Source of the DNA: an uncultured Gemmatimonadaceae bacterium
Lineage (GTDB): Bacteria > Gemmatimonadota > Gemmatimonadetes > Gemmatimonadales > Gemmatimonadaceae
Direction: 5' to 3'
Assembly: GCA_963829055.1 (NCBI GenBank)
Contig: CAWHHI010000003.1
Coordinates: forward strand, 320,001-384,000
DNA: 64,000 nt
Below are positions 117 to 63,186 of this stretch, piece by piece. Made by a program: the position numbers and the translations under genes. Every line of letters begins with the position of its first letter. Within the stretch, counting starts at the first letter, position 1. Below the pieces are notes generated by a model that saw nothing but the letters and a program-made list of their open reading frames with translations, was not told the origin of the DNA and searched no databases.

Positions 117-388
117 ATCGAAGTCGCAGGCTGCACGAGTAGAACCTTCGTGGCAGTCGCTCCGGACGCAAGCGTCAAGATCGCTCCCATGGCCCGCCGT
201 GCGGGGCGCCGACAGCGGCCCGCGCCCGTCGCCGGCTCAGACGGTGCCGTAGCGACGCACGTAGGCAGAACGCATCCCGGCCGATTGCCCTGACGGAGGC
301 TCCGCCCGCCTAACGCGTTCCCAGCCGGCGGGTCGAGCATGTCTTTCCGAGTCCTTCGACTGCGCTCAGGGGAGGCACGTCGGGGACA

Positions 389-640
389 TCAGGGATCCGA
401 CGCGTCGAACAACCGGTGAAGTGTCTGCTGTCCGCGCCAATCCATCGGACCGCCGACCCAGCGCGCGAAGCGCTCCTCGCCCTCGCGCTCGAACCGGATC
501 ACGAGGCACAGGTTAGGACCGTCGATCGACGGCGACACGACCTTGAACTCGGCCACCTCGGAAGCGCGCCACACGCGGCCGTGGCGATCGCGGTACTCGA
601 TCGGGCGGCGGAGCCGTTCGCGGGATACGGGACCGGGCAT
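389..640 (-). CDS. Hypothetical protein (83 aa)
   Basis: ORF MPGPVSRERLRRPIEYRDRHGRVW...LVIRFEREGEERFARW has protein-like composition; ATG at 640. Confidence 0.5.
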   Translation of the reverse strand: MPGPVSRERLRRPIEYRDRHGRVWRASEVAEFKVVSPSIDGPNLCLVIRFEREGEERFARWVGGPMDWRGQQTLHRLFDASDP

Positions 641-816
641 GCTACACCGACCTGCAAGCGGGATGCCCGCGTCTCCACCGCGGGCCACGCGTATAATAAC
701 ACAACGCCCCCGTGGGGTCCCGGGGGCGTTGGCACTCCACTCCACCGAGTCTGTATCGGAGGAGCATCCGTAGTATGCACGCCCAGCGCGCGTTTGGGTA
801 CTCGGGGTAACCCCAG

Positions 817-1938
817 GTGGTATTGCTTGCTGGCGCGGGACTCATGGTGCGCACGCTCTCGCAGCTCGGGCACGTGAGCGTCGGCTTCGACGTCGACCGA
901 CTGCTGACGATGCGCTTCGGCATGCCGGGGACTCGTTATGCAACGCCCGCGGAGCGGACGGCTTACCTGCGTCGACTCATCGATCGGTTCGAGAACATCC
1001 CGGGCGTCGAGTCCGGGGCGTTCAGCACACGGCTGCCGCTCGACCCCGCGTACGGCGTCGCGTCGATCGAGATCCAGGGGCGGCCCGTCGCGGCGGGCGA
1101 ACGGCCGGTGGTGGGCGCCCGCGTGGTGAGCGAGAAATACTTTCGGACGATGGGGATTCCTATTCGGTCCGGCAGAGACTTCACCGTTCGGGATGACGAC
1201 AAGGCGCCGTCGGTCGTGCTCGTGAACAACGCGCTGGCCGCGCGCTTCTGGCCAGGTGAGAACGCGGTCGGACGCCGCATTGGATTCGGCGATGGCAGTT
1301 GGTTGGATATCGTTGGCGTCGTGGGCGACGTGAGTCACGATGGCGTCGGGTCCGAGCCGATCGCCGAGATGTACATCCCGTTCGCGCAGTCGCCGGAGAC
1401 TGGCGGCGCGCTCGTGCTGCGGGCGTCGCGCGACCCGGGCGCGCTCGACGCGGCGGTGCGGCGCGCGGCGCTCTCGGCCGATCCCGATCAGGCGCTCATC
1501 GACGTGCGGCCGATGCGCGACACGGCAGCGGATTCTACGGCGCTCCGCCGATTCATGATGCTGCTGCTGACGGCATTCTCGGCGGTCGCGCTGTCGCTCA
1601 CCGCGATCGGGATTTATGGGATGCTCGCGTTCACGGTCAGCACGCGCACGCGCGAGCTGGGCATCCGCGCCGCACTCGGCGCGCGTCCGGCACAGTTGGT
1701 GTCGCTCGTCGGCCGCCAGGGCCTGGCGCTCACCGCGTTAGGCTTCGCGCTGGGAATTCCGGGCACGCTGGCGTTGACGCGGCTGCTGTCGTCGCAACTG
1801 TACGGCGTGACGCCGCATGATCCGGTGACGCTGGGGACGGCCGTCGCGGTCCTGGCGGCGGTTGCACTTGTAGCGACGTACTTCCCCACGCGCCGCGCGG
1901 CGAACGCGGATCCAGTGAAGGCGCTGACGAAGGACTAG
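817..1938 (+). pseudogene. C-terminal half only of an ADOP-family (MacB/FtsX) permease
   Basis: Starts at VLLAGAGLMVRTL, the mid-protein helix of the full-length paralogues in this window, and ends RTRELGIRAALGA...ADPVKAL. No N-terminal half found upstream. Confidence 0.7.
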
Positions 1939-1962
1939 CCGTCGATAACGCACATGCGCAAC

Positions 1963-2276
1963 AACGGCATCTAAGACAAAGGGGCGAACGGATTCACCGG
2001 ATTGGGCAGATCGACTCCGTTGTCATCCCGAGCGACAAGCGAGGGACTTCTCGAACATCATCGTGGCCGGACTGGCTACGATGCCATCACAGAAGGTCCC
2101 CGTCATGCACCTGCCTGCGGCGAGGTTCCCACGTTCCTCGGGACGACAGTGTTGCAGTTTCCTGCGTGCCTCCTGGGAGTCGCGCGTTCGACGCGGCCCG
2201 CGATCAGCCTCCCGCCCGAAATCGATCCGACAGATCCGCGGCATCCGTTCGCCGCTTCGTCTGAGATGTCTATGTT
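1963..2276. repeat. MITE-like element with imperfect inverted arms and a nested REP-like palindrome (2021-2148)
   Basis: Left arm GGCATCTAAGACAAAGGGGCGAACGGAT pairs with right arm ATCCGTTCGCCGCTTCGTCTGAGATGTC; inside lies TGTCATCCCGAGC...CTCGGGACGACA. Sits between convergent permease genes. Confidence 0.7.
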
Positions 2277-2285
2277 CCAGTCCTC

Positions 2286-8293: not shown

Positions 8294-10883
8294 ATGGGTC
8301 GCGCACACTGACGCCGAAGAGCAGACTCCTGAGCACGCGCGAGACCGCGTACGCGCCGACGCTGCCTAACACCACGCCAGCCAGCGCCAGTACGAGTCCG
8401 CGGCGCACGACCATGGCCGACCACGCGCTCCGCGCTCGCGCCGAGCGCGATGCGGATGCCGATCTCACGCGTCCGCTGCTGTACCGTGTAGGCGATCACG
8501 CCGTAGATGCCCACCACCGCGAGCACGACCGCGAGCGCGGCGAAGACCGTGAGCAGGAGTGACGTAGAACCTCGGCTGACCGAGCGAGCGGTCGATCATC
8601 GTCTCGAGCGTGAACGCGTCGTAGACGGGCAGGTCGCGGTCGAGCGACGCGACCGTCGCCTGCGCTGCCGGAGCGGCGCGGCCGGGTCGCCGCGCGTGCG
8701 CATCACGACGGTGATCTCGTCGAGCGGCCACTGATCGAACGCGGCGTAGACGTGCGGCGTGAGCCCCGCGGTCGAGACTCCGCTGCCTGACGTCCCCGAC
8801 GATGCCGACGATCTCACCGGCGAGCTCGCTCGCCCGTCCTGCTTCCATCCGAACCGGAGCCGCTTGCCGATCGGGTCTTCGCCGGCGAAGAAGCGGCGCG
8901 CCGTCTCCTCGCTGATGACCATCGTGCGCTGGCTGCCTGGACCGGTCCGCGCCGCTGAACGCCCGCCCGCGAATCGACCGGGATCGCCGACCGTCGCGAA
9001 GTACCCGGGACTCACGATACGCACCTGTGCCCTCGGCTCCACGTTAGGCGGCGGGGCGATCTCGTCCCTCGACTTCGAATGCTCAGCTGAAAGCTCTGGC
9101 CCGAGAGCGGGAGCCCGAACGTCACCGCGGCGGAGTCGACGCCGGGGATGCGGCGTACTTCCTCGAGCAACGTCGCCGCGAACGGCGCTGCTGGTCGAGC
9201 GTCTCGTACTTCATCGGACGACGAGCGTCACCGAGAACGTCGACACCCGCGCGGCCTGGAAGCCGGGGTTCACATCGCGAAGTCGCGCGAAGCTCTTGAG
9301 CAGGAGGCCCGCGCCGACGAGGAGCATGAGCGCGAGCGTGATCTCCGCGACGACGAGCGCGCCGCGCGCGCGTGCGCTTCCAGGATCTCGTGCGCGATCC
9401 GCGATTCCCGTCGCGGAGTGAGAGCGCCAGCTGTCCGCGCGGACGCCTGCAGCGCCGGGATCGAGCCGAAGAGCAGCGCCGCCAGCGCCTGTCACGCCCA
9501 GCGTGAACAGCAGTACCGTCGCGTCGACGTGCACGTTGTACAGGCGCGGTATGTCGCTCGGCGCGAGCGAGAGGAGCAGTCGAGTTCCCCAGCGCGGCGA
9601 GCACGAACCCGAGCACCCCTCCGATCAGCGCGAGGCGAGACAGCTCTCGGTGAGCAGCTGCCTGACGAGTCGCCCGCGACCGGCGCCGAGCGCCGTCCGG
9701 ACCGCGAGCTCGGACTCGCGAGCGGCGGTGCGCCCCAGCATGAGACTCGCGACGTTCGCGCACGCGATGAGCATGACGAAGCCCACGGCGGCGAGCAGGA
9801 TGATCAGCGCCGGTCGCACCTCGCCGACCATGTCTTCGCGCAGCGGAACGAGGCTACGTGCCGAGTACCCGCGTCGTGTCTCGGATCCTGCAGCCTCGAG
9901 GCGGCGAGCGATCGTCGTCCATCTCGCTGCTGCGCCTGTTCCCGCGTGACGCCAGGCGCCAGCCGGCCGATGACGTCGATCCACCGCGACCCGCGACTCG
10001 CGTCGGACAGGTCCCGTTGGGAGAAGCGCGTCGTGAGCCACATGTCCACCGGTGATGGATAGCGCATGTCGGCCGGCGCGACGCCGATCACCGTCGGTCG
10101 GGATACTCGTCGAGCGTGATGAGTTGCCGATGATGGCTGGGATCGGCGCCGAAACCGGCTGCGCCACAGGCCGTCGCTCAGGATCACGACGCGCGGCGCG
10201 TCCGCCGCATCCTCGCCGGCGGCGAACGCGCGACCGAGCGCGACGCCGAACGCCGAGCAGCTGGAACATGTTCGCGCTCACGCGCGCCTGCGTGAAGCGT
10301 TCGGCGGTGCCGCTTCCGGTCAGGTTGACCGTGCTCTCGTACGATGCGGCGAGCGCGGAAAACGCTGTCGATTGTCGGCGCCAGTCGGTGAAGTCGGCCG
10401 GGAGAGACCGCGATCCTGCCGCCATTGATCGTCGAGTAGACGCGCGATGCAGCTCGCGCGGGTTCGGCGTAGGGCAGCTCGCGGAGCAGCACGCCGCGGA
10501 CGACGGAGAAGATCGCGGTGTTCGCCCCGATGCCCGAGCGCGAGCGTGATGAGCGCGATGGAGGTGAAGCCCGGATTGCGGCGGAGCTGGCGGAACGCGA
10601 AGCGCATGTCCTGCCGGAGCTCATCGCCCAATTCGGCGCGTCGCTCGTGGTCGCATGCGCGCGCGGTCGTCGTCGTTCAGGTAGCGACGCGTGTATTCGA
10701 GGTCGCCGAACTCGGCGCGCGCACGGTGCTCAGCTTCCTGCGGTGAGAGTGCCGGCGTCGATGAGCTCCTGCGTCTTCATGTCGAGGTGGAAGCGCAGCT
10801 CGTCGTCGACTTCGCGGCGGACGCGCGTCGGCGGAGGACCAGGGGAGTCGGAACGCTCGGCGAATACCGCGAATGCGTCTCAT
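8176..10883 (-). CDS. ADOP-family duplicated permease (heavily frameshifted)
   Basis: Fragments [60 protein letters not shown] across frames. Confidence 0.85.
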
Positions 10884-11232
10884 CGAACGCGTGCTCGATC
10901 GGAGTTGCGTCCGGTACGCGGTTTCGAGCACCTTGAAGATCGCCTCGGCGTACTGCCTCCATTCGGACGGTTTCGGCGCGGAACTGCGTGCGGCCGGCAG
11001 TGGTGAGCTGGTAGTACTTGGCGCGGCGGTTGTTCTCGGAGAGTCCCCACTCGGATTCGATGAGGCCTTTGCGCTCGAGGCGATGGAGTGCCTGGTAGAG
11101 CGCGGCGTCTTCGACGGTGAGGACGTTGTCGGTGCGCTGACGGATCCACCGGGAGATGGCGTAGCCGTGCATGGCGTCCCACGAGAGTGTCTTGAGGATC
11201 AGGACGTCGAGCGTTCCCTGGAGGAGGTCCAT
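10880..11232 (-). CDS. PadR-family transcriptional regulator (3' end frameshifted, approximate)
   Basis: MDLLQGTLDVLILKTL..MHGYAISRWI..LYQALHRLE..EWGLSENNRRAKYYQLT; directly upstream of an ADOP permease. Confidence 0.92.
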
Positions 11233-11274
11233 GGCGTGGCAGCTGAGTGACGCATTGGCGGAATCGTTTGCCAT

Positions 11275-11293
11275 CCCCTCACAATGTGAGGGG
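11275..11293. promoter_or_regulatory. Candidate PadR operator (perfect 9-1-9 palindrome)
   Basis: CCCCTCACA-A-TGTGAGGGG about 40 bp upstream of the padR start. Confidence 0.65.
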
Positions 11294-11798
11294 AGTAGAT
11301 TCGAATTGTCAAGCGATGAAGAACCTTGGCGGTTCGTCGGGCGCTCGTCCTAGCCATCCTCGGCGCGGCGAGGCTCGGTCTATGTGTCACGACGTGAAAT
11401 CTGGCTCCGCGATCGCTCCATTAGAATTGACGTTCTAGAATGCGGACATTATCTGACACTATTGACGCGTCATTATGACGCCACCATGCGAGCAAACTAT
11501 TAATAAGTATCAATTTGCTCAGAAATTGGCCACATGAGCCGAAGTACGTTGGTTTGCTGGCGCTCTCCACGGTTGTTGCACGACTTCTAGCAGGGTTAAC
11601 ATCCGGATCCTTCGATCGTCGAGATAGCGTCCTCTGCAATTGTCGAGCAATCGATCGAGAGAACCATCGAGGCCGGTCAGGGTGTCGTAGTAGAGCACGA
11701 TCGAGCTTGGACGAGGCGGCGCAAGCAGGTGGCGCGACGATCGATCCAGGCATTTTTTTGCGAAACGGACGGGTAGCCGCGGTCGTGCGGCCACTCTC

Positions 11799-12619
11799 AT
11801 GGCGCTGCGGGCCGCACGACGCGGCGCCGATGGAGGGGATTCCGAATGGCGAAGTCCGTCAGACCCGTTGTCGTGGTTGAAGCAGGTCGCGTTAGGGATC
11901 GGCGCATTGGGAACGATGATCTTCACCGCGCAGCACGTCCGCCCGGTCTACGCCGGTCGCGCTCCGGTCGTGCGAGAGCTGCTCGAGCCGCGCGCGTGGG
12001 GCGACTCCGCGCTCGCCCGTGCTCCATGGGCGATCGGGATCCAGCGACGTGGCACTCCTCAGCCCACAGTTCGAGATCGACCGACGCGCGTTCATGGAAG
12101 ACCTCATTCGCACGTCCGGCATCACGCCGGGCTCGCGCGGATTCCGTCGCGACGTTCGCGGTGCGTGAGGCCTATCGTCGTCGAGTCCCGCCCGCGCTCG
12201 TGTTCGGCGTCCTCATGGTCGAGAACCGCGAGCTCAAGTCGTCGGCGACATCCAACGCCGGCGCGGTGGGGCTCATGCAGATCGACACGAGCACCTGGGT
12301 GAGCGCACTCGGCAAGCATTTCGGCACGAATCTGCGCAACGACGAGACGAACCTCCGCTACGGCGTGTTCATTCTCAGTCATCTGCTCTACGACAGCGAC
12401 GACGACTGCGCCGGCCGACTCGGCGAACGTGCACGGGTCGCTGCGTCGCGGCCTCCTGCGCTACAACGGATGCGTGCGCGGCACGAACACGAAGAACTGC
12501 TTCCGCTATCCAGAGATCGTGCGCACGCGCATCGACACACTTCGCGATCGTCGCAGTGCGGTTGGCGCGGGTACGAGCGCTGCGTCGCCGAGCCGCTCAA
12601 GTACGCGCTCGACGACTGA
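11799..12619 (+). CDS. Lytic transglycosylase SLT-domain protein (frameshifted)
   Basis: VPPALVFGVLMVEN...SNAGAVGLMQI...NLRYGVFIL...LLRYNGC; N-terminal membrane anchor. Confidence 0.85.
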
Positions 12620-13785: not shown

Positions 13786-14190
13786 AGCAACGGCAACGGC
13801 AAGACAGGATGGCCAGGATCGGCAGGATTGGACAGGATGATGGCCGGCATTCACCCGTGCTCGCGCAACGCGCCGTGAATAAGGCGACAGCCGCTCGGGA
13901 CGCGACTCTCACTGAGAGCTGTTCCTAGAAACGTTAGGCGGTGCGGCAACTGCAACTGCAGGACAGGATGGCCAGGATGACAGGATTGAACAGAGCCTCC
14001 GTGTCGCGCTCGCGGTCCCTCCCGCAACGAGCCCAGATGAGGGGAACCGCGGCTCGGGACGCCACTCTCCCTGAGATGTGTTCCTTCATTCGTTAGGCCC
14101 CGGCGACACGCTCCCCGACGCCGAAGCGGTCATCTTCTCAATCCTGCCAATCCTGGCCATCCTGTCCTGCAGTTGTTGTTGTTGTTGTTG
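13786..14190. repeat. Composite repeat: two direct units of about 159 bp plus an inverted terminal arm
   Basis: GACAGGATGGCCAGGAT at 13803 and 13962, inverted (ATCCTGGCCATCCTGTC) at 14150; GCTCGGGACGCNACTCTCNCTGAGA..GTTCCT..CGTTAGGC occurs twice. Confidence 0.8.
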
Positions 14191-21850: not shown

Positions 21851-24424
21851 ATGGGCTCGACTCTGTTGCACGACCTGCGCTATGGTGCTCGCGCACTTCG
21901 CGGCGCTGCCGGCTTCACGCTGGTGGCCGTTTCCACGCTGGCACTCGGCATCGGGGCCAACACGGCAATGTTTGGTGTCGTGGATGCGCTGCTCTTCAAG
22001 CCGCCGGCGGAAGTCGTGAGTCCGCGCGACGTCATGAAGGTTCGTGTCGCGGTGCCGCCCCGTGGCGGCGAAGGAAGTCCCGTGCTGTCGTCGGTGCTCT
22101 CCTATCCCGATTTCGTCGACCTGCGAACGCATGCGCGCGGCTTCACGTCGATTGCCGCCTACGCCCGCAACTCGCTGAGCATCGGCGAAGGGACCGAAGC
22201 CAAGCAGCAGCAATCGTTGCTCGTGACAGGGACGTACTTCCCGCTGCTCGGCGTTCGGCCGGCCATCGGCCGGTTGATCGGGCCGACCGATGACCTGGAG
22301 AACGCCGCGGTCCCGGTGGCTGTACTGAGCTGGGACTTCTGGCAGCGCTCGTACTCCGCGGACGCGGCGGTGATCGGCCGGGCGATCCGGATCAACGGGC
22401 GGCCGTTCACCATCATCGGCGTGGCGCCCGAGCATTTCGGCGGCACCGACCTCGACGCGCCGGCGCTCTGGGTGCCCATGGGAACCTCGACCACTCTGGG
22501 CTATGACGCGCGGATGATGCGCTCGCGATTCGCGTCGTGGCTGTCGATCGTTGGCCGACTCGCGCCGGGCACGTCGTTGGAGCAGGCGCAGGCGTCCGCT
22601 CAGGCGGCGCTGCTCGCGGCGCGCGATGCCGGCGAGGCTCCGACGCCCGGTGACGGTCCGCTGGGTGCCGCGCCCGGCGGCGGCGAGGTCCGCGTCGAGA
22701 TCGGCGGACCTGGCCCGGGCGGGCCGGGCAACGGCCCGCGAGCGGCGCCGCCGCCGAGGCAGGTGCGCCTAACGCCGCTCGGTGGGAGCGGCACGTCGGC
22801 ACTGCCGTCGCCGTTCGGCGGGACGCAGCCGGTTCCAGTGTCGCTGTGGTTCCTGGCCGTGACGGGTGCCGTGCTGCTCATCGCGTGCGCGAACGTCGCG
22901 AACCTGTTGCTCGCACGAGCGGCACGGCGCGAGCACGAGATCGCGGTACGGCTCTCGCTGGGCGCGCCGGCCTGGCGCCTAACGCGCCAGCTCATGATCG
23001 AGAGCCTGCTGCTGGCGGCGCTCGGGGGCGCTGGCGGACTGGTGCTCGCGTTCGCCGGCGTGGCGGTGTTGCCGAGTGTGGTGGAGATGCCGCCGATGCC
23101 ACCGTTTCTCGACGCGCGCGTGCTGGGGTTCACGGCTGCGCTGACGCTCGTGACGACGCTCGCGTTCGGGCTCATCCCGGCGATCCGGCTGGCGCGCACG
23201 GATCTGCAGCGCGTGCTGTCGTCGACGGGACGCTCGCGGTCTGGCCGGTCGTTCGGCAAGAACGTTCTGGTCGTCGCGCAACTCGCGGCGTCACTGGTGC
23301 TCGTCATCGGCGCCGGGCTGTTCATCCGGAGCCTGCGGAACGTTCGCGCCGTGAACACGGGATTCGCGGCGGAGCAGGTCGCGTTCGCGTCTGTCGAGGG
23401 TGGCCAGCGGATGACGCGCGAACAGTCGGCGGAATTCTGGCAGCGGGCGGTGGAGCGGGTCCGCGCGCTCCCGGGCGTCCGCAGCGCCTCGCTGGGCGCG
23501 GTGATTCCGTTCGAGATGAACATCATGATGCCCGTCGACGTGCCGGGGTACCAGTCGTCCGACGGCCGCCCGACGCCGGCGCAGATCGACTTCGCGGGGA
23601 CGGACTACTTCTCGACGTTAGGCATCCCCATCCGGCAGGGACGCGCGTTCACGGCCGAGGACCGCGAGGGCGGTGCGCCGGTGGTGATCATCAACGAGAC
23701 GCTGGCACGGCGGGCGTGGGGCGGCGCGTCGCCGATTGGCCGGTGCCTGCGTATCGGCGGCGGTGGCGACGGGCCATGCATGGAGGTGGTCGGCGTGGCG
23801 GCGGATGCGCGGTATGCGGACGTGACGCAGCCGTCACCGCCGTTCGTCTACCGCGCGCTGGCGCAGCGGCCGCGCATGGCGCCGCCGATGACGATCATGC
23901 ACTTCCGCTCGAGCGGCGATCCAGCGGCGGTCGCGGGAGTCGTCAGGCGCGAGCTCCAGGCGCTGGCGCCGAGCGTCCCGTTCGTGCGTGTGGTGCCGAT
24001 GATGGACCTCATCGCGCCGCAGCTCGCGCCGTGGCGGACGGGGACGCTCATGTTCTCCCTGTTCGGCGTGCTCGGGCTCGCGCTGGCGGCCATCGGATTG
24101 TACGGCGTGATCTCGTTCCTCGTCGCTCAGCGTACGCGGGAGATGGGTGTGCGGATAGCGCTCGGGGCGCGCCGCGCCGACGTACTCACGCTCGTGCTGG
24201 CACAAGGCGGGCGGCTGATCGTGACGGGCATTGTGATCGGCGCCGCGGTCGCGATGGCGTCGACGCGGTTATTCGGCTCGATGATGTACGGGGTGAGCGC
24301 GGTGGATCCGGTCGTCTACATCGGGACGGCGGCGTTGTTAGGCGTGGTGGGGTTCGTGGCGCTCATCGTCCCGGCGCGACGGGCCACGAGAGTCGATCCA
24401 CTGGTGGCGCTTCGGGCGGAATAG
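21851..24424 (+). CDS. ADOP-family duplicated permease (intact)
   Basis: [74 protein letters not shown]. Confidence 0.93.
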   Translation: MGSTLLHDLRYGARALRGAAGFTLVAVSTLALGIGANTAMFGVVDALLFKPPAEVVSPRDVMKVRVAVPPRGGEGSPVLSSVLSYPDFVDLRTHARGFTSIAAYARNSLSIGEGTEAKQQQSLLVTGTYFPLLGVRPAIGRLIGPTDDLENAAVPVAVLSWDFWQRSYSADAAVIGRAIRINGRPFTIIGVAPEHFGGTDLDAPALWVPMGTSTTLGYDARMMRSRFASWLSIVGRLAPGTSLEQAQASAQAALLAARDAGEAPTPGDGPLGAAPGGGEVRVEIGGPGPGGPGNGPRAAPPPRQVRLTPLGGSGTSALPSPFGGTQPVPVSLWFLAVTGAVLLIACANVANLLLARAARREHEIAVRLSLGAPAWRLTRQLMIESLLLAALGGAGGLVLAFAGVAVLPSVVEMPPMPPFLDARVLGFTAALTLVTTLAFGLIPAIRLARTDLQRVLSSTGRSRSGRSFGKNVLVVAQLAASLVLVIGAGLFIRSLRNVRAVNTGFAAEQVAFASVEGGQRMTREQSAEFWQRAVERVRALPGVRSASLGAVIPFEMNIMMPVDVPGYQSSDGRPTPAQIDFAGTDYFSTLGIPIRQGRAFTAEDREGGAPVVIINETLARRAWGGASPIGRCLRIGGGGDGPCMEVVGVAADARYADVTQPSPPFVYRALAQRPRMAPPMTIMHFRSSGDPAAVAGVVRRELQALAPSVPFVRVVPMMDLIAPQLAPWRTGTLMFSLFGVLGLALAAIGLYGVISFLVAQRTREMGVRIALGARRADVLTLVLAQGGRLIVTGIVIGAAVAMASTRLFGSMMYGVSAVDPVVYIGTAALLGVVGFVALIVPARRATRVDPLVALRAE

Positions 24425-47013: not shown

Positions 47014-50000
47014 ATGCCTCGTACTCATCACATCACCCGCGGCGCAGCACTCGTCGCATCTCTGCTCGCGGCCGCCGTGCCCGCCGGCGCGCAGACACGG
47101 ATGCTGCGCAGTCCCACCGTCAGCGAGAAGAACATCGCGTTCGCGTACGCGAACAACGTCTGGATCGTCGATCGCGCCGGCGGCGCCGCACGTCGCCTAA
47201 CGAGCTTCCAGGGCGAAACGACGAACCCGAAGCTCTCACCCGACGGCAAGTGGCTCGCGTTCAGCGCCGAGTACGGTGGCAACACCGACGTCTACGTCGT
47301 CGCCACCGACCCGACGACCGCCGCGCAGACCGGCGGTCAGCCGAAGCGCCTGACGTGGCACCCGGGCGCTGACGTCGTGCAGGGATGGACGCCCGACGGC
47401 AAGCGGATCATGTTCTCGTCCGGACGCGCGGCCAACGCGCCTAACGGCGCGCCGCGCTTCTTCACCGTGGCGACCGAAGGTGGCGTGGAAGAAGCCATGC
47501 CGCTGCCGCGCGCGTATCAGGGCAAGATCTCGCCCGACGGCAAGCGCATCGCCTACCGCATGAACAACTCGTGGGACGAGGAGCGCCGTAACTACCGCGG
47601 CGGTCAGAACCGCCCCATCTGGATCGTCGACCTCAAAACGTTCGAGCTCGAGTCGCCGCCGTGGACGGATTCGAAGGACATGGATCCGGTCTGGTTAGGC
47701 GACGTCGTGTACTTCCTCTCCGACCGCGACGGCGTCTCCAACGTCTGGGGGTACGACTCGCGCACGAAGAAGCTCGGGCAGATCACGAACTACAACGACT
47801 TCGACGTGAAGACGCTCGATGCCGGCGCGGGCGTGCTCGTGTTCGAGCAGGCGGGCTACATCCACGAGATCGATCCCGGCTCGGAGCGCGACCGCGTCGT
47901 GAACATCACGGCGGTCGGCGACTTCCCGTGGATGATGGCGCAGTGGAAGGACGTCTCGAACCGCATGACGAACCTCGCGCTCTCGGCCACGGGCAAACGG
48001 GCCGCGGTGGAAGCGCGCGGCGAGATCTTCACGATTCCCGCCGAGAAGGGCGACATCCGCAACCTCACGAACTCGAGCGCGTCGGCCGAGATCGCGCCGG
48101 CGTGGTCGCCGGACGGCCGGTTCGTCTCGTACTTCAGCGACAAGTCCGGCGAGTACAAGCTGTACATCGCGTCGCAGGACGGCCTGACGCCGCCACGCGA
48201 GATCACGATCCCGGAGCCGAGTCACTTCTTCGTGCCCTCGTGGTCGCCGAACGGGCAGAAGATCACGTTCCAGGACACGCACTTCCGCGTGTGGCTCGTG
48301 GACGTCGCGAGCGGCAAGGCCGACATCGCCGACGGGGATCTCGTGTACAACGGCGATCGGTCGATCATTCCCGTGTGGAGCCCCGACTCGCGGTACATCG
48401 CGTATCCGAAACACCTGCCGTCGCTGTTCCGCGCGATCTTCCTCTACGACACGCAGACGGGCGAGAAGAAGCAGATCACCGACGGTCTCGCCGACGCGAC
48501 GTCGCCGACGTGGGACGCCAGCGGCAAGTACCTCTGGTTCTTCGGCTCCACGAACTACGGACTGAACTCGTCCGTGCTCGACATGTCGGCGTACGAGCGT
48601 TCGACCACGCGCGGTCTGTACCTGACGGTGTTGTCGAAGGCGGATTCGTCGCCGCTGCTGCCGGAGAGCGACGAGGAAGCCGCGCGCGCGGGCCGACCGC
48701 CGCGCGAGCCGGGCCGCGAGGTTCCGAACCGCCCCGACAGCGCCGCGCCGCCACGTGGTGGTGCGGCTCCCCGGCGCGCGCCGCCGCCCAGAACGCCGAG
48801 TCGCCGGACTCGATGCCTAACGTTCAGCGGGCCGCGGCCGGACGTCCGGTGCGCATCGACTTCGACGGCATCCAGCAACGCCTCATCGCGGTTCCGGACC
48901 TGGCGCTTCGCGACTACTCGCAGCTCCGCGCGGGTCCGCCTGGCACGGTGTTCTTCCTCGAGGCGATTCCGGCCACCGGTACCAACGACCGTCCCGGCGG
49001 AGGTCAGGGTGGTGTCCCTGTCGGCACGCTCCACCGCTATCAGCTCAACACCAGACGCGCCACGCCGTTCGCGCAGGGCGTCGCGCAGTACGTCGTGAGC
49101 GCCGACGGACACAAGCTGCTCTATCGCACGGCCGGTGGCGGCGGACAGGGCGGCGGTGGTGGACAGGGCGGCGGCGCCGGTGGCGCGCTGTTCCTCGTCG
49201 ACGCCGACAAGCAGCCGCCGACGGCGGGTCAGGGTCGCCTCAACACGCAGCTCCGCGCGTACGTGGACCCGAAGGCCGAGTTCCAGCAGATCTTCAACGA
49301 GGGATGGCGCAACGAGCGCAACAATCTCTACGTGAAGAACCTGCACGGCACCGACTGGCCGAAGATGAAGCAGATGTACAGCCAGCTCCTGCCGTACGTG
49401 AACCACCGCGCGGATCTGAATTACCTGATGGACATGATGGGCGCCGAGATCGCCATCGGGCACTCGTACGTGCGCGGCGGTGACATGCCCGAAGTCCCGC
49501 AGGCGAACGGCGGCTTGTTAGGCGCCGACTTCACGGTCGACAACGGCCGCTACCGCATCGCCCGCATCTACGACACGGAAGGCTGGAACCCGGAGCTCCG
49601 CGCGCCGCTCGCCATGCCGGGCCTGAACGTGAGCCGCGGCGACTACGTCGTGGCCATCAACGGCACCGAGCTGAAGACGCCGGACAACATCTACCGTCTG
49701 CTCGACGGCACGGCGAACCGTCAGACGGTGATCGCGGTCAACTCGCGCCCGACGCTCGAAGGCGCGCGACAGATCACGGTCATCCCCGTGGCGAACGAGC
49801 AGGGTCTGCGCACACGAGCGTGGGTGGAGCAGAGCCGCCGCATCGTGGATTCGCTGTCCAACGGCAAGCTCGCGTACGTCTACATCCCGAACACCGGGCA
49901 GCCGGGCTACACGAGCTTCAACCGCTACTACTTCGCGCAGCAGGACCGGAAGGGCGCCATCATCGACGAGCGCTACAACGGTGGTGGCTCCGCCGCCGAC

Positions 50001-50498
50001 TACATCGTCGACATCCTCGGCCGCGACTACGACGGGTACTTCAACAACCCGGCCGGTAACCGCGTGCCGTTCACGAGCCCCGCGTCAGGCATCTGGGGCC
50101 CGAAGGTGATGATCATCAATGAGATGGCCGGCTCCGGCGGCGATCTCATGCCCTACATGTTCAAGCACCGGAAGATCGGCCCGCTCGTCGGGAAGCGCAC
50201 GTGGGGCGGACTCGTCGCCACGAGTGACACGCCGCCGTTCGTGGATGGCGGATCGATGATCGCGCCGCGGTTCGGCTTCTTCGCCCGTGACAACAAGTGG
50301 GCGGTGGAGAACGAAGGCGTCGCGCCCGACGTGGACGTGGAGAACTGGCCGAAGGACGTCATAGCCGGCCACGATCCGCAGCTCGAGCGCGCGGTGCAGG
50401 AAGCGCTGAAGCTGCTCGCGGCGAACCCGGGCAATCGACTGATGCAGGAACCGCCCCCGCCGATGTGGGGCAAGCGCGTGAAGCCGCTCGATCGTTAG
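47014..50498 (+). CDS. Tricorn protease homologue, S41 family (frameshift near 48790)
   Basis: PD40-like repeats (LSPDGKW, WSPDGR), PDZ-like segment, IIDERYNGGG, EMAGSGGD, GKRTWGG, ENEGVAPD, DPQLERAV. Confidence 0.93.
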
Positions 50499-50639
50499 GC
50501 ACTCGGCAGCGCTGCACGGCAGGAGTTCGAGGGGCTGGGCGCCAGGAGTTGGGCGTCCAGCCCCTCGTGCATCGCGGGCCTACTGGCCTGCCCGCACCGG
50601 CGCCGAATGGCCTTGCGCGCCGCCCTGCACCGTTCTACC

Positions 50640-50666: not shown

Positions 50667-50668
50667 GC

Positions 50669-51020: not shown

Positions 51021-53741
51021 ATGAGCCCGGCGTCACACGGCGGCGACCCGCCCGCCAAGCCACCCCGCCAGCCGCCCACGTGGCGGCGCTACCTGCGCTT
51101 CTGGGGGCCTAACGTCGACGCGGACGTCGACGACGAGCTCCGCTTCCATCTCGAGATGCGCGCCCGTGACTACGCGGCGCGCGGCCTGACCTCCGACGAC
51201 GCCCTCCGGGCCGCCGCCGAACGGTTCGGCGACCTCCACGGTATCGGCGGCGCCCTGCGCGCCCACGATCGGCGCCGCGAGCGCGGCCGCCAGAGGAAAG
51301 AGTACATGAGTGACCTCACGAACGACCTCCGCTACGGGATGCGCGCGTTCACCCGCGCGCCGGCGTTCACCACCGTGGCGCTCCTCACCATCGCGTTAGG
51401 TATCGGGGCCACCACCGCGATCTTCAGCGTCGTCAACGCCGTCATCCTCCGCCCGCTCCCCTACCCCGATGCCGACCGCATCGTGCAGGTGTGGATGGAC
51501 AACCGACGCCAGGGTCTGAAAGAAGACCTGCACTCGTGGCCGAACTACGCCGACCTGCGCGAGCAGAACCACGTCTTCTCCGCCATGGCCGCGTACACCA
51601 CCGGCGGATACAACATCACGGCCGGCTGCAAGGAAAGCGACTGCGAGCCGCAGCGCATCAAAGCACTGTTCGCGACGCCCGACATCTTCCGCGTCCTCGG
51701 CCTAACGCCAGCAATGGGCCGAGCGTTCACGGTCGAGGAGGATCAACCGGGCAAGGATGGCGTCGTCATCATCAGTCACGGGCTGTGGACTGGGCTTTTC
51801 GCCGCCGATCGCGGCATCATCGGCCGCACCGTTCGACTGAACGGGCGCGAGCGCACGGTCATTGGCGTGCTGCCGCCGTGGTTCGCGTTCCCGAACCGCG
51901 ACACCGACGTGCTGGTGCCACTCGCCATGGACGCCGACGACAAGCAGTACCGCTCCTCGTTCGGTCTCTACTCCGTCGCCCGCCTCGAGCCCGGCATCAC
52001 GTTCGAGCGCGCCGTGGCCGACCTGAACGCCATCGGCCGGCGGCTCGAGCAGCAGTACCCGACGAACCGCGACTACGGCGTCTACCTCGTGCCGCTTCCG
52101 GAACAGGTCGTCGGACGCACGCTCCGCACGTCGCTGTGGGTGATGATGGCCGCCGTCGGCGCCGTGCTGCTCATCGCCTGCGCGAACGTCGCGAACCTGA
52201 TGCTGTCGCGGGCCGCCGTCCGCGAGCGCGAGATCAGCGTCCGCGTCGCCCTCGGCGCCGCTCGCACGCGCCTCGTCCGGCAACTCCTCACCGAGAGCAT
52301 CCTCCTGTCCGTGCTGGGTGGCGCGTTAGGTACCGCACTGGCGTGGGTCGGGCTGCGCGTGCTCACGCGCATGGCGCCAGAAGACATCCCGCGAATGGAC
52401 CAGGTCCGCATCGATCTCCCGGTGCTCGGCGTCGCGCTCGTACTCGCGGTCTTCACCGGCATCGCGTTCGGGCTCGCGCCGGCATTGCAGTCGTCACGCG
52501 TGGCCGTCGGAGGCGCGCTGCGCGAGGGCATTCGCGGCGGCACCGGCGGACGAAGAGCGCAGCGCATGCGTCGCACGCTCGTCGCCGCGCAGATCGCGCT
52601 CGTGGTCATGCTGCTCACCGGCGCGGGGCTGCTCATCAAGAGCTTCATGCATCTGCAGCGCGTCGACCTCGGGTTCCGCCCCGACCATCTGCTGACGATG
52701 CGCTTCTCGTTGCCGGGCGCGAAGTACCCGACGCCGCAGGCGCGCGCGGCATTCCAGGAGACGCTGCTCGAGCGCACCCGGCAGATCCCTGGCGTTCAGG
52801 GCGCGGCGTTCATCTCCGACATCTTCCTCAGCGCGACCCCGAACTCCACGACCATCACGATCGACGGGCGTGAGATGACCCCCGAGGAACAGAACGTCGA
52901 GGTGCCGCTCGACGCCGTATCGCCCGACTACTTCAAGGTCATGGGCATCCCGCTCCGCAGCGGGCGCACGTTCGCCGCTACCGACAATCTCGAGGCGCCG
53001 CAGGTCGTCATCGTCAACGAGAGCCTGGCGCGACACTTCTGGCCTAACGAGGACGCGGTCGGCAAGCGCTTCAAGTACGGCAACGCCACGAGCACCGGCC
53101 CGGTCATGACCGTCGTCGGCGTGGTCGCCGACATGCGCCGCACCGGCTTCGACGCGCCGGTGCGCTACGAGACGTTCCGCCCGTACACGCAGCGCGTCGT
53201 CGGCTACCTCACGCTCGTGGTCCGAACCGCCGGCGATCCGCTCGCGATGGTCGCACCGGTGCGCGCGCAGTTCCGCGCCCTCGACCCCGAGCAGCCTGTC
53301 TTCGCGGTCGAGTCGATGGATCAGCTGCTTTCCTCCATGGTCGCCCAGCGCCGCTTCAGCATGGCGCTGCTCGGCACGTTCGCCGCGCTCGCGCTCGTGC
53401 TCGGCGTCGTGGGTGTGTACGGCGTCACGTCGTACCTCGTAGCCCAACGCACGCGCGAAGTCGGCGTGCGGCTCGCGCTCGGTGCGCAGCCGCGGCAGGT
53501 GGTCGGCATGGTCGTCCGCCAGGGAATGCTGGTGGCGGCTGCCGGACTCGCGGTTGGTCTGGTGGGCGCTCTCGCTACCGGCCGGCTCATTACCGGTTTG
53601 CTCTATGGCGTCAGCCCGTACGACGTCGCGACGCTGGCAGTCGTGACCGTCGCGATCGGCCTCGCCACCCTCGTGGCGAACTGGCTGCCCGCCCTGCGCG
53701 CCGCTCACGTCGATCCGTTGATTGCGTTGCGAAGCGATTGA
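51021..53741 (+). CDS. ADOP-family duplicated permease (intact)
   Basis: [14 protein letters not shown]-terminal extension, [37 protein letters not shown]. Confidence 0.95.
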   Translation: MSPASHGGDPPAKPPRQPPTWRRYLRFWGPNVDADVDDELRFHLEMRARDYAARGLTSDDALRAAAERFGDLHGIGGALRAHDRRRERGRQRKEYMSDLTNDLRYGMRAFTRAPAFTTVALLTIALGIGATTAIFSVVNAVILRPLPYPDADRIVQVWMDNRRQGLKEDLHSWPNYADLREQNHVFSAMAAYTTGGYNITAGCKESDCEPQRIKALFATPDIFRVLGLTPAMGRAFTVEEDQPGKDGVVIISHGLWTGLFAADRGIIGRTVRLNGRERTVIGVLPPWFAFPNRDTDVLVPLAMDADDKQYRSSFGLYSVARLEPGITFERAVADLNAIGRRLEQQYPTNRDYGVYLVPLPEQVVGRTLRTSLWVMMAAVGAVLLIACANVANLMLSRAAVREREISVRVALGAARTRLVRQLLTESILLSVLGGALGTALAWVGLRVLTRMAPEDIPRMDQVRIDLPVLGVALVLAVFTGIAFGLAPALQSSRVAVGGALREGIRGGTGGRRAQRMRRTLVAAQIALVVMLLTGAGLLIKSFMHLQRVDLGFRPDHLLTMRFSLPGAKYPTPQARAAFQETLLERTRQIPGVQGAAFISDIFLSATPNSTTITIDGREMTPEEQNVEVPLDAVSPDYFKVMGIPLRSGRTFAATDNLEAPQVVIVNESLARHFWPNEDAVGKRFKYGNATSTGPVMTVVGVVADMRRTGFDAPVRYETFRPYTQRVVGYLTLVVRTAGDPLAMVAPVRAQFRALDPEQPVFAVESMDQLLSSMVAQRRFSMALLGTFAALALVLGVVGVYGVTSYLVAQRTREVGVRLALGAQPRQVVGMVVRQGMLVAAAGLAVGLVGALATGRLITGLLYGVSPYDVATLAVVTVAIGLATLVANWLPALRAAHVDPLIALRSD

Positions 53742-59936: not shown

Positions 59937-60296
59937 GTGGCCCGAACGTTTCTCGAATCGGCACTGGGAAGCACGCTGCCGTCGTTCACGTCCGAGTGGG
60001 CGGCGCTCCGGCGGACGTATCCTCCCACATCTCCACCCACCGACGCCGATTTTCTCGCGGCGCTGCGTGCGCACGTGCTGCGGTTGCTCGGTGAAGGCCG
60101 CGTCGCGGAGACGACGCGGTTCTTCTACGCGCTCGAGCGGCTGCTCGAGGAGGCGGACCCAATTCTGCACGAGTTGATCGCGCGCGATCTCGTCGCCGCG
60201 CTCGCCACCGAGTGTCGGCTCGCGGCGATCGACGCGCGTCGTGTCGAGCCCTACCTCGGGACGCGCACCCGCGCAGCGTGGATGAACACGGCGTGA
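59937..60296 (+). CDS. Hypothetical alpha-helical protein
   Basis: 119-aa ORF (RFFYALERLLEEAD..YLGTRTRAAW) following the GNAT gene. Confidence 0.6.
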   Translation: MARTFLESALGSTLPSFTSEWAALRRTYPPTSPPTDADFLAALRAHVLRLLGEGRVAETTRFFYALERLLEEADPILHELIARDLVAALATECRLAAIDARRVEPYLGTRTRAAWMNTA

Positions 60297-60303
60297 CAAC
60301 TAC

Positions 60304-60406
60304 GTCATCCCGAGCGCTCAGCGAGGGACCTTCTGTGACGCATTCGTGCCGGACGGCCACGATCACGTCCGAGGGGCTCCTTCGCTGACGGCCTCGTCGG
60401 ATGACA
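60304..60406. repeat. REP-like palindromic element (degenerate)
   Basis: GTCATCCCGAGCGCTCAGCGAGGGACC ... CCTTCGCTGACG..TCGGATGACA between convergent genes. Confidence 0.75.
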
Positions 60407-60450
60407 CGCTTTTTCCCCGTCCGCTCCGCCCTCCGAAGGCCGTCCTTCAG

Positions 60451-63186
60451 CTATTCCCGCAACGCAATGATCGGGTCCACACGCGTGGCCCGCACCGCCG
60501 GAATCAACGTCGCCAACACGCCAGCCACGCCGACTACCGCCACGATCACCACGTACGTCGGCACGTCGGTGCGCTGGACGCCGTACAGGAAGTTCGACAG
60601 CAGCCGCGTCGCCGCGAACGCCCCACCGACCCCGATCACGAGCCCGGCCACCGTCAACACCACGCCCTGCCGGACCACCAGCGCCAGCACCGACGACGGC
60701 TGCGCGCCGATGGCCATCCGTACGCCGAACTCCCGCCTGCGCTGCGTCACGAGATACGCCAGCACGCCGTAGACGCCTAACGCGGCAAGCAGCGCGGCGG
60801 CGAGCCCGAAGCCGGACAGCAGCATCGTCACGAACCGCGTGCCCGACGCCGCCCGCGCCACCATCTCGTCACCAGTCGCCACTCCGTACACCGCGATCGT
60901 CGGATCCGTTTCGGTGATCGCCCGGCGGATCGCCGGCATCGTCTCCGCGGGGCTGGTACGCGTCCGCGCGACGATCACCGACCCGCCAGGCGCCGAGAAC
61001 TGGCCAGCGTCGTAGTAGACGGCCGGCCGAGAAGGGGCGTCGATCGCCTCGTACTTCACGTCCGCGACGACGCCCACGACTTCCATGGGCGGGGTCGAGT
61101 CTCCCAACGTCGAGAGCCGGCGGCCAATGGGAGATTGCCCCCGCCAGAGGAGACGCGCCGCCGACTCGTTCACGATGACCGCCGTCGGCCGGCCCGGTGC
61201 CTCGCGCGAGTCGAACACACGCCCACGCCGCAACGGCACGCGCAGCGTGCGCAGGAAATCACGCGAAACGACGTGAATCTCCATCGGCGGGTACTCGCCA
61301 CGCGTCGTCGCACGTGAGTCCACTCGCGACACCGGCATGAAGACACAGTCGCTGCCGAGTGGCGGACAGTTCGACGAAGCGGCGGACTCCATGCCGGGCA
61401 GTGCCGCGATCCGCGCGACCATCTCCGCGCGGCGGTCCGGCGTCGCGAGCGTTGAGTCACCGCCCGACAGCCGGAGTGTCACGAGATGGTCCGCGGCGAA
61501 TCCGATGTCGCTCGCGAGCAACGCGCGGAAGCTGCGCACCATGAGACCCGCGCCGACCAGCAACGCCGTCGCGAGTCCCACCTGTCCGATGACCAGCAGG
61601 CGACGGCCGCGAGCCCGTGTCGTTCCGCCTCTGCTACCCGCGACTTTGATGATGTCCGCGATGTTCGTCCGCGACGCGGCGAGCGCGGGCGCGGCGCCGA
61701 ACAGCATGCCCACGGCCAGGGTCAGCACGGTCACGAACGCCAGGACGCGCCAGTCGGGCGCGAGCGAGACGCCCTGCAGGATATCCACGTTGCGAAGCAG
61801 CACGAAGTTGGGCGGCAGCGTCGGTCGAACGCGCGCCAGCGCGGCCGCGCCGCCGTAGGCGATCAGCACGCCCGGAATCCCGCCGGCGAGCGCCAGCACG
61901 ACGCTCTCGGTGAGCATCTGCCTAACGAGCCTGCCGCGGCCGGCACCGAGCGCGATGCGCACTCCCATCTCGGACTCACGGGCGCGGGCGCGGGCCAGCA
62001 ACAACCCGGCGAGGTTCGCGCACACGATCAGCAACACGCCCCCTACCGCGATCGAGAGCACCGTCAGCAGCGGACGGATCAGCGGGTGACGCCTCGCCTC
62101 GGCGAAGCCGACCACGCCGCCACTCCACTCCGCCTTCCGACTGCCGAACGCCGGCGGCGGGAAGATCGCGTTCAGAGCCCGGGCGGCGGTCTTGATTTGA
62201 GCGTTCGCGGTCGCGAGCGACGCGTTAGGCGCGAGACGTGCGACCACGGCGCCCATCTCGTTCGCCATCTGCTCGCGCCGCTCTCGCGGGCCCAACTCGG
62301 CGAGCGCCTTGATCGGCACCCACATCTCCGCGCTCTCGCGAATGCCGGTGAAGCTCGCCGGCATGACGCCGATGATCGTCACGGGCAGCTTGTCCAGAAC
62401 GGCGGTCGTCCCGATCACGGCGGTGTCGCCGCCGAAGTGTCGCCGCCAGAGCGGCTCGGACAATACCGCGACGGCGCCCGACGCCGATGGCATCGAGTCG
62501 GCCGCGGCAATGGTGCGGCCAATGAGAGCCCGCGCCCCGAGCGTCGAGAACAGACTCGTAGTCACGAGTTCCGCCCGCACGCGCTCCGCTGATTGCGCGG
62601 GCGCGCCGGCCGGGAGCCCGGTGCGTCGGAGGTTGTACTCGTCCCAGCTCGAGAAGCCGGCGTCCGCGAAGGCAGGGACCATCTCGCGCAGCCGGACGTA
62701 CTTGTTGTACGTCCACGGCATGGAGTCCACGGCGAAGAAGAAGCCGGGCGTGACCGTCTGGGCTGTGACCACCAACCGCTCGGCGGCCGGAAACGGGAGC
62801 GGCCGGAGGAGGATGACGTTCACGAGCGTGAAGACCGCCGTTGTGGCCCCGATACCTAACGCGAGCGACGTAATGGCGACGGCGGTGAACGCTGGTGCCT
62901 GGCGGAGCGACCGGAGCGCGTAGCGCGCGTCCTGTATCGCCGCCTCGACCCACCCGACAGCCATCACGTCGCCGGTCTGGTCCCGCAATCGCGCCGCGTT
63001 GCCGAACTGGCGACGCGCGGCCCACGCCGCCTCGTCCGCGCTCATGCCGGCTTGCTCGTGGTCCCGTGCATTCATCTCGACGTGGAACCGCATTTCCTCG
63101 GCGAGCTCGCGCTCGAAGCGCTCGCGGTTGAGATAGAATCGGATGCGGCGCGCGAGCTCGGCCACGTACTCAATCGGGTTTCGCAT
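60451..63186 (-). CDS. ADOP-family duplicated permease (intact)
   Basis: ELAEEMRFHVEM, QDARYALRSLR, LALGIGATTAVF, LIVCANLAGLLLAR, RRREFGVRMAIGA. Confidence 0.95.
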   Translation of the reverse strand: MRNPIEYVAELARRIRFYLNRERFERELAEEMRFHVEMNARDHEQAGMSADEAAWAARRQFGNAARLRDQTGDVMAVGWVEAAIQDARYALRSLRQAPAFTAVAITSLALGIGATTAVFTLVNVILLRPLPFPAAERLVVTAQTVTPGFFFAVDSMPWTYNKYVRLREMVPAFADAGFSSWDEYNLRRTGLPAGAPAQSAERVRAELVTTSLFSTLGARALIGRTIAAADSMPSASGAVAVLSEPLWRRHFGGDTAVIGTTAVLDKLPVTIIGVMPASFTGIRESAEMWVPIKALAELGPRERREQMANEMGAVVARLAPNASLATANAQIKTAARALNAIFPPPAFGSRKAEWSGGVVGFAEARRHPLIRPLLTVLSIAVGGVLLIVCANLAGLLLARARARESEMGVRIALGAGRGRLVRQMLTESVVLALAGGIPGVLIAYGGAAALARVRPTLPPNFVLLRNVDILQGVSLAPDWRVLAFVTVLTLAVGMLFGAAPALAASRTNIADIIKVAGSRGGTTRARGRRLLVIGQVGLATALLVGAGLMVRSFRALLASDIGFAADHLVTLRLSGGDSTLATPDRRAEMVARIAALPGMESAASSNCPPLGSDCVFMPVSRVDSRATTRGEYPPMEIHVVSRDFLRTLRVPLRRGRVFDSREAPGRPTAVIVNESAARLLWRGQSPIGRRLSTLGDSTPPMEVVGVVADVKYEAIDAPSRPAVYYDAGQFSAPGGSVIVARTRTSPAETMPAIRRAITETDPTIAVYGVATGDEMVARAASGTRFVTMLLSGFGLAAALLAALGVYGVLAYLVTQRRREFGVRMAIGAQPSSVLALVVRQGVVLTVAGLVIGVGGAFAATRLLSNFLYGVQRTDVPTYVVIVAVVGVAGVLATLIPAVRATRVDPIIALRE

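Follow-up and report, generated by a model that had tools for sequence, protein, structure and literature searches.

The 8-mer GCCTAACG, scattered through a 64,000-nucleotide stretch of DNA from an uncultured Gemmatimonadaceae bacterium (the window; contig CAWHHI010000003.1, positions 320,001 to 384,000, or G000:C3:320001-384000), is a DNA word under selection or drive throughout the genome, and within ~100-300 bp of one copy a second is redundant, whatever its orientation. The proteins of the genome of origin (G000; 7.78 Mb in 20 contigs) match loci named Gemmatimonadaceae at a median identity of 62%, compared to 37% for those named Chthoniobacterales, and the genome is accordingly placed in the Gemmatimonadaceae. 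The word is tentatively read here as an intracellular self-tag that would favour the repair, recombination or survival of nearby DNA, an interpretation that leads its rivals while being held with somewhat less than even confidence. New relative to the original prediction, which was made from the letters of the window, are the identity of the word with the attC/attI ends of integrons, its short-range mutual exclusion, its occurrence in a second phylum and its presence in phages. No description of the word was found in the literature consulted (mainly open-access main texts).

The original prediction counted 74 copies of CCTAAC/GTTAGG in the window (36 plus, 38 minus) and 60 of GCCTAAC. Both counts are reproduced, 51 of the 60 being GCCTAACG, and the word is present at 10/10 of the coordinates offered as examples. 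While the enrichment is borne out, the expected numbers of 18 and 6-7 that accompanied it prove too high: dinucleotide shuffles of the window give 6.7 and 2.2, and 0/100 reach the observed count of either CCTAAC or GCCTAAC. Thus, the excess is larger than first estimated. The entire genome holds 7,103 CCTAAC, 5,630 GCCTAAC and 5,004 GCCTAACG, with the word on all 20 contigs at 0.75-1.2 CCTAAC per kb, and the excess of GCCTAACG is confirmed as real and genome-wide.

Coding preference falls short of these numbers. In 5,312 well-supported genes, 2,967 copies of GCCTAACG are found versus 84-95 in three synonymous-codon resamplings (~30-fold). A null conditioned on dipeptides predicts ~600 GCCTAACG in genes and ~2,300 of the 6-mer versus 4,160 observed, and is conservative because the codons of the motif itself are absorbed into it. 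The enrichment, which was envisaged at the outset as possibly disappearing under codon- or dipeptide-preserving nulls, persists under both. The word occupies four reading frames and two stop-making frames: 70% of all TTA codons lie within it, as do 39% of Pro-Asn pairs and 422 of the 2,065 TAA/TAG stops. The codon readings noted earlier for the window (Ala-Leu-Gly, Arg-Leu-Thr and Pro-Asn) are confirmed from the coordinates of the open reading frames (ORFs), with GCG TTA GGC at 1735, CGC CTA ACG at 22766 and CCT AAC at 51108; likewise, the site at 50493-50500 ends ORF 47661-50498, which bears tricorn protease domains, and supplies its TAG stop as described. The statement that most copies lie inside coding sequence holds for the window by a bare majority, in that 39/74 are inside called genes and 32 outside, with 3 more straddling a gene end. 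Genome-wide, 4,653 of the 7,103 CCTAAC copies fall within called genes, where the density is 0.79 per kb compared to 1.28 outside. The gene caller covers 75% of the genome and misses frameshifted genes, its coverage being lowered by frameshift errors in the assembly.

The core of the word, (C)CTAAC, is nearly fixed and its end bases are graded. In G000, position 1 is G in 79% and A in 12% of copies, position 8 is G in 90% and A in 7%, and the outer flanks are unconserved. A Markov model with sites masked puts the enrichment of end-base variants at 10-70-fold; variants at both ends fall far short of what independence predicts, and inner ones stay near baseline, except for GCATAACG (4-fold). Masking lowers the null for words that contain CCTAAC; thus, their enrichment ratios are upper bounds. 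The variant GCATAACG is often seen as CGTT-ATG-C, and many of its examples appear to overlap a start codon.

Neighbouring sites avoid one another. Within genes of G000, the ratio of site pairs to expectation in successive 50-bp bins is 0.12, 0.29, 0.45, 0.65, 0.84 and 0.98, with a similar ramp for same-strand pairs and for both opposite-strand arrangements; a control hexamer shows flat pair spacing. The range of exclusion is ~300 bp in G000 and ~100 bp in Chthoniobacterales. Exclusion is common to ACCTAACG, CCCTAACG, GCCTAACA and GCATAACG (z -5 to -8) and is not seen in G000 for GCCGAACG, GCCTGACG and GCCTCACG. This dependence on the variant points to a reader with graded specificity. Opposite-strand neighbours <50 bp apart (33/3,420) are below chance, with no excess of inverted-pair terminators, and no clusters of sites marking a special locus are found in G000 besides attC sites.

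The assembly of G000 has many single-base frameshift errors, which gives some footing to the view that the word is an artefact, a codon or peptide preference, a polar signal of the Chi or KOPS (FtsK-orienting polar sequence) type, or a dispersed repeat element; the probability of this view is practically negligible. The null models oppose a codon habit, and flanks unconserved beyond 8-9 bases oppose a repeat element. Short-read assemblies of relatives (k141-named contigs), from which the original prediction allowed that the word might be absent, bear it, while two foreign-looking stretches of 48 kb and 37 kb on contigs of G000 have 0 sites compared to ~44 and ~33 expected. Together, these observations exclude a base-calling artefact, as had been argued from the window. 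The proteins of the two stretches (C6:6854-55038 and C11:7377-44055) look foreign, with housekeeping genes in duplicate and, by eye, affinities to other phyla; the stretches would be contamination, chimeric joins or DNA transferred recently. Short-read contigs from 4 runs closely cover 44-64 kb of the window, and 0/40 listed substitutions (of ~1,770) fall in sites.

A polar role, doubted earlier for lack of strand bias, finds no place either. Replichore polarity is absent in three genomes, the correlation of motif skew with GC skew being r -0.13 in G000, +0.13 in G276 (20 windows) and -0.10 in G275 (18 windows), and the roles of Chi and KOPS are rejected on this basis. An apparent strand polarity in G275 was also rejected, by the direct counts in the same 18 windows. 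The flanks of a dif-like site at C16:560818 hold 127 vs 188 sites on the left and 184 vs 175 on the right, a small strand bias that is largely a coding-strand effect. On C16 (~100-1,000 kb), genes converge on this dif-like site (560,818), both arms being very strongly strand-biased, and core genes cluster around it, where the density of the word is lowest.

The word is patchy among genomes. With word-rich defined as at least 100 GCCTAACG per Mb, a hand count of 251 Gemmatimonadaceae genomes gives 68 rich (21/64 genera), 9 with 30-100 per Mb and 174 with fewer; the unpublished genomes G013, G226 and G245 are counted only among word-poor rows. Genus g54 includes five rich and four poor members, and rich lineages are scattered on a helicase marker tree of 24 genomes, which suggests repeated gain or loss and fits the gain or loss of a factor. 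A few genomes of two sister families are elevated, compared to 0/43 in the rest of the class and phylum. No substitute word was found in poor genomes, as judged from 140 kb of G067 and ~120 kb of G113. A GTDB-wide scan of one genome per species for three spaced copies returns 33 loci, 16 from Gemmatimonadota and 17 from Verrucomicrobiota (Chthoniobacterales and related labels), and no others; the scan is biased towards the densest genomes and would overlook weaker cases. Of the Chthoniobacterales, 10/121 genomes reach 100 per Mb, in a dialect that is the 9-mer GCCTAACGA (86-89% A). Within the Gemmatimonadaceae, G065 tolerates GCCCAAC.

Sites are retained among relatives beyond chance. In a 20-kb orthologous block of ~78% identity, four relatives keep 7/12, 6/12, 6/10 and 3/11 of the G000 sites, compared to 24-27% of random hexamers, and have sites of their own elsewhere. 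Thus, sites arise and decay by point change, with ~half turning over within one genus. Compensatory turnover is only suggestive, in that a new site lies 170-300 bp from some of the lost ones (small n). Core genes of G000 have 0.69 sites per kb and all genes 0.81. The nulls, the retention among relatives and the absence of polarity uphold the proposal of a selected or driven, non-polar, genome-wide signal; of the systems named with it, methylation loses ground and uptake is possible, with no receptor that tracks the word.

If the word were bound by a nucleoid-organising protein whose footprint or spreading range is a few hundred bases, and were kept by selection on chromosome structure, this would account for the orientation-free exclusion, the retention between relatives and the presence on all replicons. 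Such a role would sit poorly with the turnover of ~half of the sites within a genus, the minimum of density in core regions and the near absence of the word from close relatives in g54. No helical phasing at 10-11 bp is seen, and a simple periodogram of the three largest contigs tested detects no period of 10-200 kb (P 0.24-0.41), unlike the periodicity of HIP1 (highly iterated palindrome 1) of cyanobacteria. A nucleoid role is scarcely probable on this evidence.

The word extends to mobile DNA. In the complete genome G056, it is on 4/4 replicons, and a 21-kb integrase-bearing element has 1.0 per kb compared to 0.3-1.1 in chromosome windows. By contrast, the uptake signal sequence (USS) of Haemophilus influenzae is reported at 0.58 per kb in accessory DNA and 1.08 in shared DNA (PMC7811141). 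Motif scans retrieved 246 viral loci, which are thus selected by motif; many of the dense matches are attC arrays, and several are phages with dispersed sites. The phage locus L087 (terminase, portal and scaffold) has 43 sites in 17 kb. In locus L312, 29 sites are packed into 7.8 kb (3.7 per kb) and no two are closer than 95 bp (P<0.001), compared to 0.11 sites per kb in 78 related phage loci; L312 shares 26/27 sites with L280 at 90.5% identity, versus 57% of random hexamers (P 5e-6). There are 21 CCTAACG in the 49 kb of a provirus and 34 in the 44 kb of a phage that is 98% complete and lacks a tyrosine integrase. Searches for a longer assembly of the densest phage found none.

Other features of the viral loci were noted alongside. 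Integron cassette arrays lie within three contigs classed as viral (L040, L047 and L064). In phage G399, which bears the motif and has no tyrosine integrase, a RecT recombinase adjoins an MT-A70 methyltransferase (L563:2597-4095). A viral contig of 118 kb and 42% GC (L022) has 14 same-strand copies of CCCATCGCCTAACGG at positions 133-3999, spaced 110-840 bp apart; this looks like a promoter or operator repeat, separate from the dispersed word.

An intracellular reader is favoured because (i) the density of resident mobile DNA and phages matches or exceeds that of the chromosomes, unlike the poorer accessory DNA of H. influenzae, (ii) the same word is found in two phyla without a shared FimT, and (iii) the range of redundancy is only 100-300 bp. 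The properties of the word are observed, and from them a reader, its location and its action are proposed. The reader would be a cytoplasmic DNA-binding protein or enzyme that acts on any replicon. Strands or molecules with a site would win locally through biased heteroduplex repair or protection, and sites would accumulate by point mutation until every few hundred bases hold one. Phages may be pushed above host density by more recombination or by a gain from mimicry.

Several observations weigh against the self-tag. The search for a reader, described below, yields no exclusive correlate among four methyltransferase classes, FimT, ComEC, Ku, AddAB, IntI and one unannotated shared protein. A comparison of ~1.4 Mb of Chthoniobacterales DNA with the G000 proteome gives 307 low-copy shared proteins, none conspicuous by eye; this screen covered only part of a Chthoniobacterales genome. 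Exclusion in the Chthoniobacterales is weaker and limited to depletion at <100 bp, and in G056 it is irregular. Native gaps in G000 reach 15.8 kb, so that coverage by sites is not obligatory and is graded rather than absolute. The phages were chosen by motif, with probable rather than known hosts; the densest are fragments of 21-47% completeness that could be temperate, their 8-mer density (1.5-2.1 per kb) is only 1.2-1.6x that of the richest hosts (~1.3 per kb), and a stretch of 6.7 kb in phage G399 lacks CCTAACG. The host pattern alone also fits uptake sequences, with type IV pilus genes, ComEC and DprA present.

This last point introduces the alternative that ranks close behind the self-tag, namely a third kind of DNA uptake sequence, for which a receptor on the pilus or in the periplasm would have a preference, with uptake and homologous recombination driving the word into the genome; this is a credible contender, though doubtful. 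The range of redundancy would then reflect short environmental DNA fragments. As expected of uptake, the word is non-palindromic, ~1 per kb, unpolarised, in four codon frames and stops, and evenly spaced; foreign-looking segments have none of it and core genes slightly less, as reported for USS and the DNA uptake sequence (DUS), and it has dialects. The genome G000 has type IV pilus genes and DprA (identified by motif and inspection), ComEC and an orphan FimT-like pilin that ends in GRxR, which is the motif reported for FimT that binds DNA (PMC8897410). The candidate receptors do not follow the word. The FimT-like pilin is found in rich and poor genomes alike (45/48 strong matches), no column of its alignment separates 24 rich from 23 poor genomes (best difference 0.45), and it is the only one of several pilins compared. 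No orthologue of it is found in 12 Chthoniobacterales, and a plasmid collection gives no FimT match. ComEC is in 5/5 genomes tested, rich and poor, and an SLBB search aimed at ComEA matched 61/61 genomes without establishing ComEA. The lack of excess of close inverted pairs and the density of mobile elements and phages, which equals or exceeds that of chromosomes, also speak against uptake.

Methylation is the other mechanism with a precedent. In a ratchet of the HIP1 type, an orphan methyltransferase of a class other than the four compared below would mark CCTAAC, and methyl-directed mismatch repair would fix sites unless one is near. No replicon would escape such a ratchet, sites would be locally redundant under it, and the strict core with deviations at the end bases suits it. 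The co-occurrence with a methyltransferase that the original prediction suggested as a check does not materialise for the four classes compared. No C5 methyltransferase is found in G000, G056 (100% complete) or G086. The N6/N4 (beta) class is missing from 10/18 rich family genomes, the D12 class is missing from rich G056 and G276 and present in poor G113, and the Eco57I-like enzyme, which occurs in rich as well as poor genomes, is not found in G276. Because these four classes do not track the word, the methylation reading has lost ground and is very unlikely; enzymes of types I and III/IIG are outside the comparison. In G000, the Eco57I-like methyltransferase is followed by a helicase (C8:73,550-78,300; L165), an arrangement present in 4/4 family genomes tested, whatever their motif state. 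An N6/N4-class methyltransferase is found in 7/7 rich Chthoniobacterales (G274-G277, G306, G340 and G357), several of ~270-285 aa, and in 5/7 poor ones.

Proteins of DNA repair and recombination correlate with the word in part. Ku is present in 23/25 rich vs 14/23 poor family genomes and in 7/7 rich vs 2/6 poor Chthoniobacterales, and is missing from both near-complete g75 genomes; its association is probably a habitat correlate. Most of the 7 rich Chthoniobacterales tested carry two Ku genes. The AddAB/RecB-type nuclease (PF12705, E<1e-20) shows the opposite trend, with 4/25 rich vs 12/23 poor family genomes (Fisher P 0.013, where kin are not independent and one poor match may not be AddB). 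In g54, this nuclease is absent in 4/4 rich genomes (G065, G147, G175 and G198) and present in 4/4 poor ones (G113, G237, G253 and G268), and the pattern of Ku is nearly its opposite. AddAB is rejected as the reader, the anti-correlation being only partial, and a synteny search for a gene that replaces AddAB found nothing. The tyrosine recombinases of G000 are XerC, XerD, IntI and one fragment, with no extra candidates. One unannotated protein shared by both phyla was rejected as the reader since it is also in poor genomes.

The spelling of the word leads to the integron. The core site of integrons has the consensus GTTRRRY (R' and R'' boxes of attC and R box of attI) with an invariant GTT/AAC, and the word is spelled as the commonest attC/attI ends of these lineages. 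One proposal is that IntI or a factor that handles attC/attI reads the word, or that the reader evolved to capture cassettes. The tolerated GTTAGGT and, in G065, GTTGGGC fit the consensus; in rich or intermediate Chthoniobacterales, most of the attI/attC ends seen read TCGTTAGRY and share the extra T of the local 9-mer, and IntI exceeds the cut-off in 12/14 rich or intermediate genomes vs 6/16 poor ones. That correlation is confounded by kinship and probably reflects it, as most Chthoniobacterales integrases group together, and counter-examples exist on both sides (a poor genome with TCGTTAGGC and a rich genome with TGTTAGAC). In the Gemmatimonadaceae, IntI is in 33/40 rich vs 15/20 poor genomes. 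The ~10 attC sites of G000 are <1% of its 7,103 copies, while >99% are single sites in ordinary genes without an attC hairpin, and GTTAGAC, which is common in attC, is not enriched there (24 vs 19 expected). The attC ends may also have been converted by the drive instead of being its source. An integron link is highly improbable, and the shared spelling is an unexplained lead.

The attC sites themselves are modest in number. What few copies the word has in motif-poor relatives form both ends of the attC sites of cassette arrays. Contig C20 of G000 has a chromosomal integron (~119,000-209,000; L169 at the integrase end) with ~10 dispersed attC-like sites that end in the word. Its IntI is divergent and just over the cut-off (265.7 bits), and a separate N-terminal IntI fragment lies at C4:2850-3239. 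The attC at C20:205101 (z -2.8) and a site of G027 (z -4.0) fold well, an attC of G276 is weak (z -1.2), and the putative attC at C20:207858 does not fold as an attC hairpin (z 0.68).

These threads can be combined in a horizontally shared self-recognition outside the uptake and HIP1 models. Two soil phyla would have one 8-9-bp word in common, which resembles in spelling the tyrosine-recombinase core site of the integrons they themselves carry, and a cytoplasmic reader would favour native DNA within 100-300 bp, tend to replace AddAB and be mimicked under selection by phages. As a whole, this combination is unlikely.

Representative sites of the window are collected in Table 1. Tandem AATCCTG(C/T)C words with GTTGCC tails form an intergenic repeat family in the window (~13,900-14,100) and at ~113 places of G000, and are near GCCTAACG ~2x as often as expected. 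Single-base indels relative to short-read contigs occur in the window at 44,001-63,900 (e.g., 55215, 56556, 56596 and 56653) and indicate that the split ORFs of this part are assembly errors.

Table 1. Occurrences of the word, and the longest stretch free of it, in the 64,000-nucleotide window.
Feature	Position	Strand	Remark
Dispersed CCTAAC/GTTAGG, 74 copies (60 GCCTAAC, 51 GCCTAACG)	308..62861	both (36 plus, 38 minus)	local sample of 7,103
GCCTAACG outside called genes	308..315	+	
Site in FtsX/MacB permease ORF 817-1938	1736..1743	-	read GCG TTA GGC (Ala-Leu-Gly, rare TTA)
Longest site-free stretch	9050..11890	both	2.8 kb
Site bordering intergenic AATCCTG-type repeat element	13932..13939	-	
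Site in permease ORF 21746-24424	22767..22774	+	read CGC CTA ACG (Arg-Leu-Thr, rare CTA)
Another site in permease ORF 21746-24424	22977..22984	+	210 bp beyond the 22767 site
Site in N-terminal piece of tricorn protease gene	47195..47202	+	gene split, probable assembly frameshift
Site giving the stop of tricorn protease ORF 47661-50498	50493..50500	-	TAG at 50496-50498
Site in permease ORF 51021-53741	51107..51114	+	read CCT AAC (Pro-Asn)
Site within permease ORF 60451-63186 (minus strand)	62223..62230	-	

Only three bacterial groups offer well-studied examples of hyper-abundant genome words, and what HIP1 does is still debated. The word described here has advantages over the known cases in that close relatives with and without it are available (g54), its range of action is measurable, and phages are denser in it than their probable hosts. 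In the second phylum, the word arose or arrived independently, with a one-base dialect. These features make the reader findable by whole-genome gene association and allow uptake drive, repair bias and selection to be tested against each other. For the engineering of these abundant soil bacteria, adding the word to incoming DNA may alter uptake or retention.

Of the known systems, the DUS of Neisseriaceae and the USS of Pasteurellaceae are similar to the word in being non-palindromic, ~1 per kb, without orientation bias, and within genes in several frames, as well as in even spacing, graded one-off variants, lineage dialects and absence from foreign-looking stretches. USS and DUS are described as unoriented, evenly spaced and lost from new DNA, and a second site is reported to bring no further benefit when it lies within 100 bp (PMC1939737, PMC7811141). 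The DUS receptor is ComP, and the predicted USS receptor is PpdA/ComN, a FimT-like pilin (bioRxiv 10.1101/2025.06.16.659825). By contrast, the word differs in sequence, has no inverted-pair terminator excess and is not tracked by the one pilin compared; its mobile elements and phages equal or exceed core DNA in density, and it is the same in two phyla.

HIP1 (GCGATCGC) of cyanobacteria is likewise a hyper-abundant 8-mer kept against codon preference, with a strict inner core and varying end bases. In the published accounts, the deviations of HIP1 concentrate at the first and last base (PMC4390886), it is periodic at 10-90 kb (PMC5861425), and its methyltransferases are DmtA/DmtC, with a repair ratchet, chromosome structure and gene transfer as debated functions (PMC4390886, PMC5861425, PMC13756078). 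HIP1 is palindromic, whereas the word is not (GCCTAACG and CGTTAGGC differ); HIP1 is also phylum-wide while the word is patchy within a family, and the word has no C5 methyltransferase in three rich genomes and no 10-200 kb period in G000.

Integron core sites (GTTRRRY) share the letters of the word at their commonest attC/attI ends, while the hairpin context of an array applies to only ~10 sites on C20. Chi (RecBCD/AddAB) and KOPS (FtsK) are also over-represented short words that phages can carry. These are polar and the word is not; its redundancy is orientation-free, and an AddAB/RecB-type nuclease is present in fewer rich than poor genomes (4/25 vs 12/23). Thus, the word resembles DUS/USS and HIP1 in its working, but on the features tested it is a member of neither.

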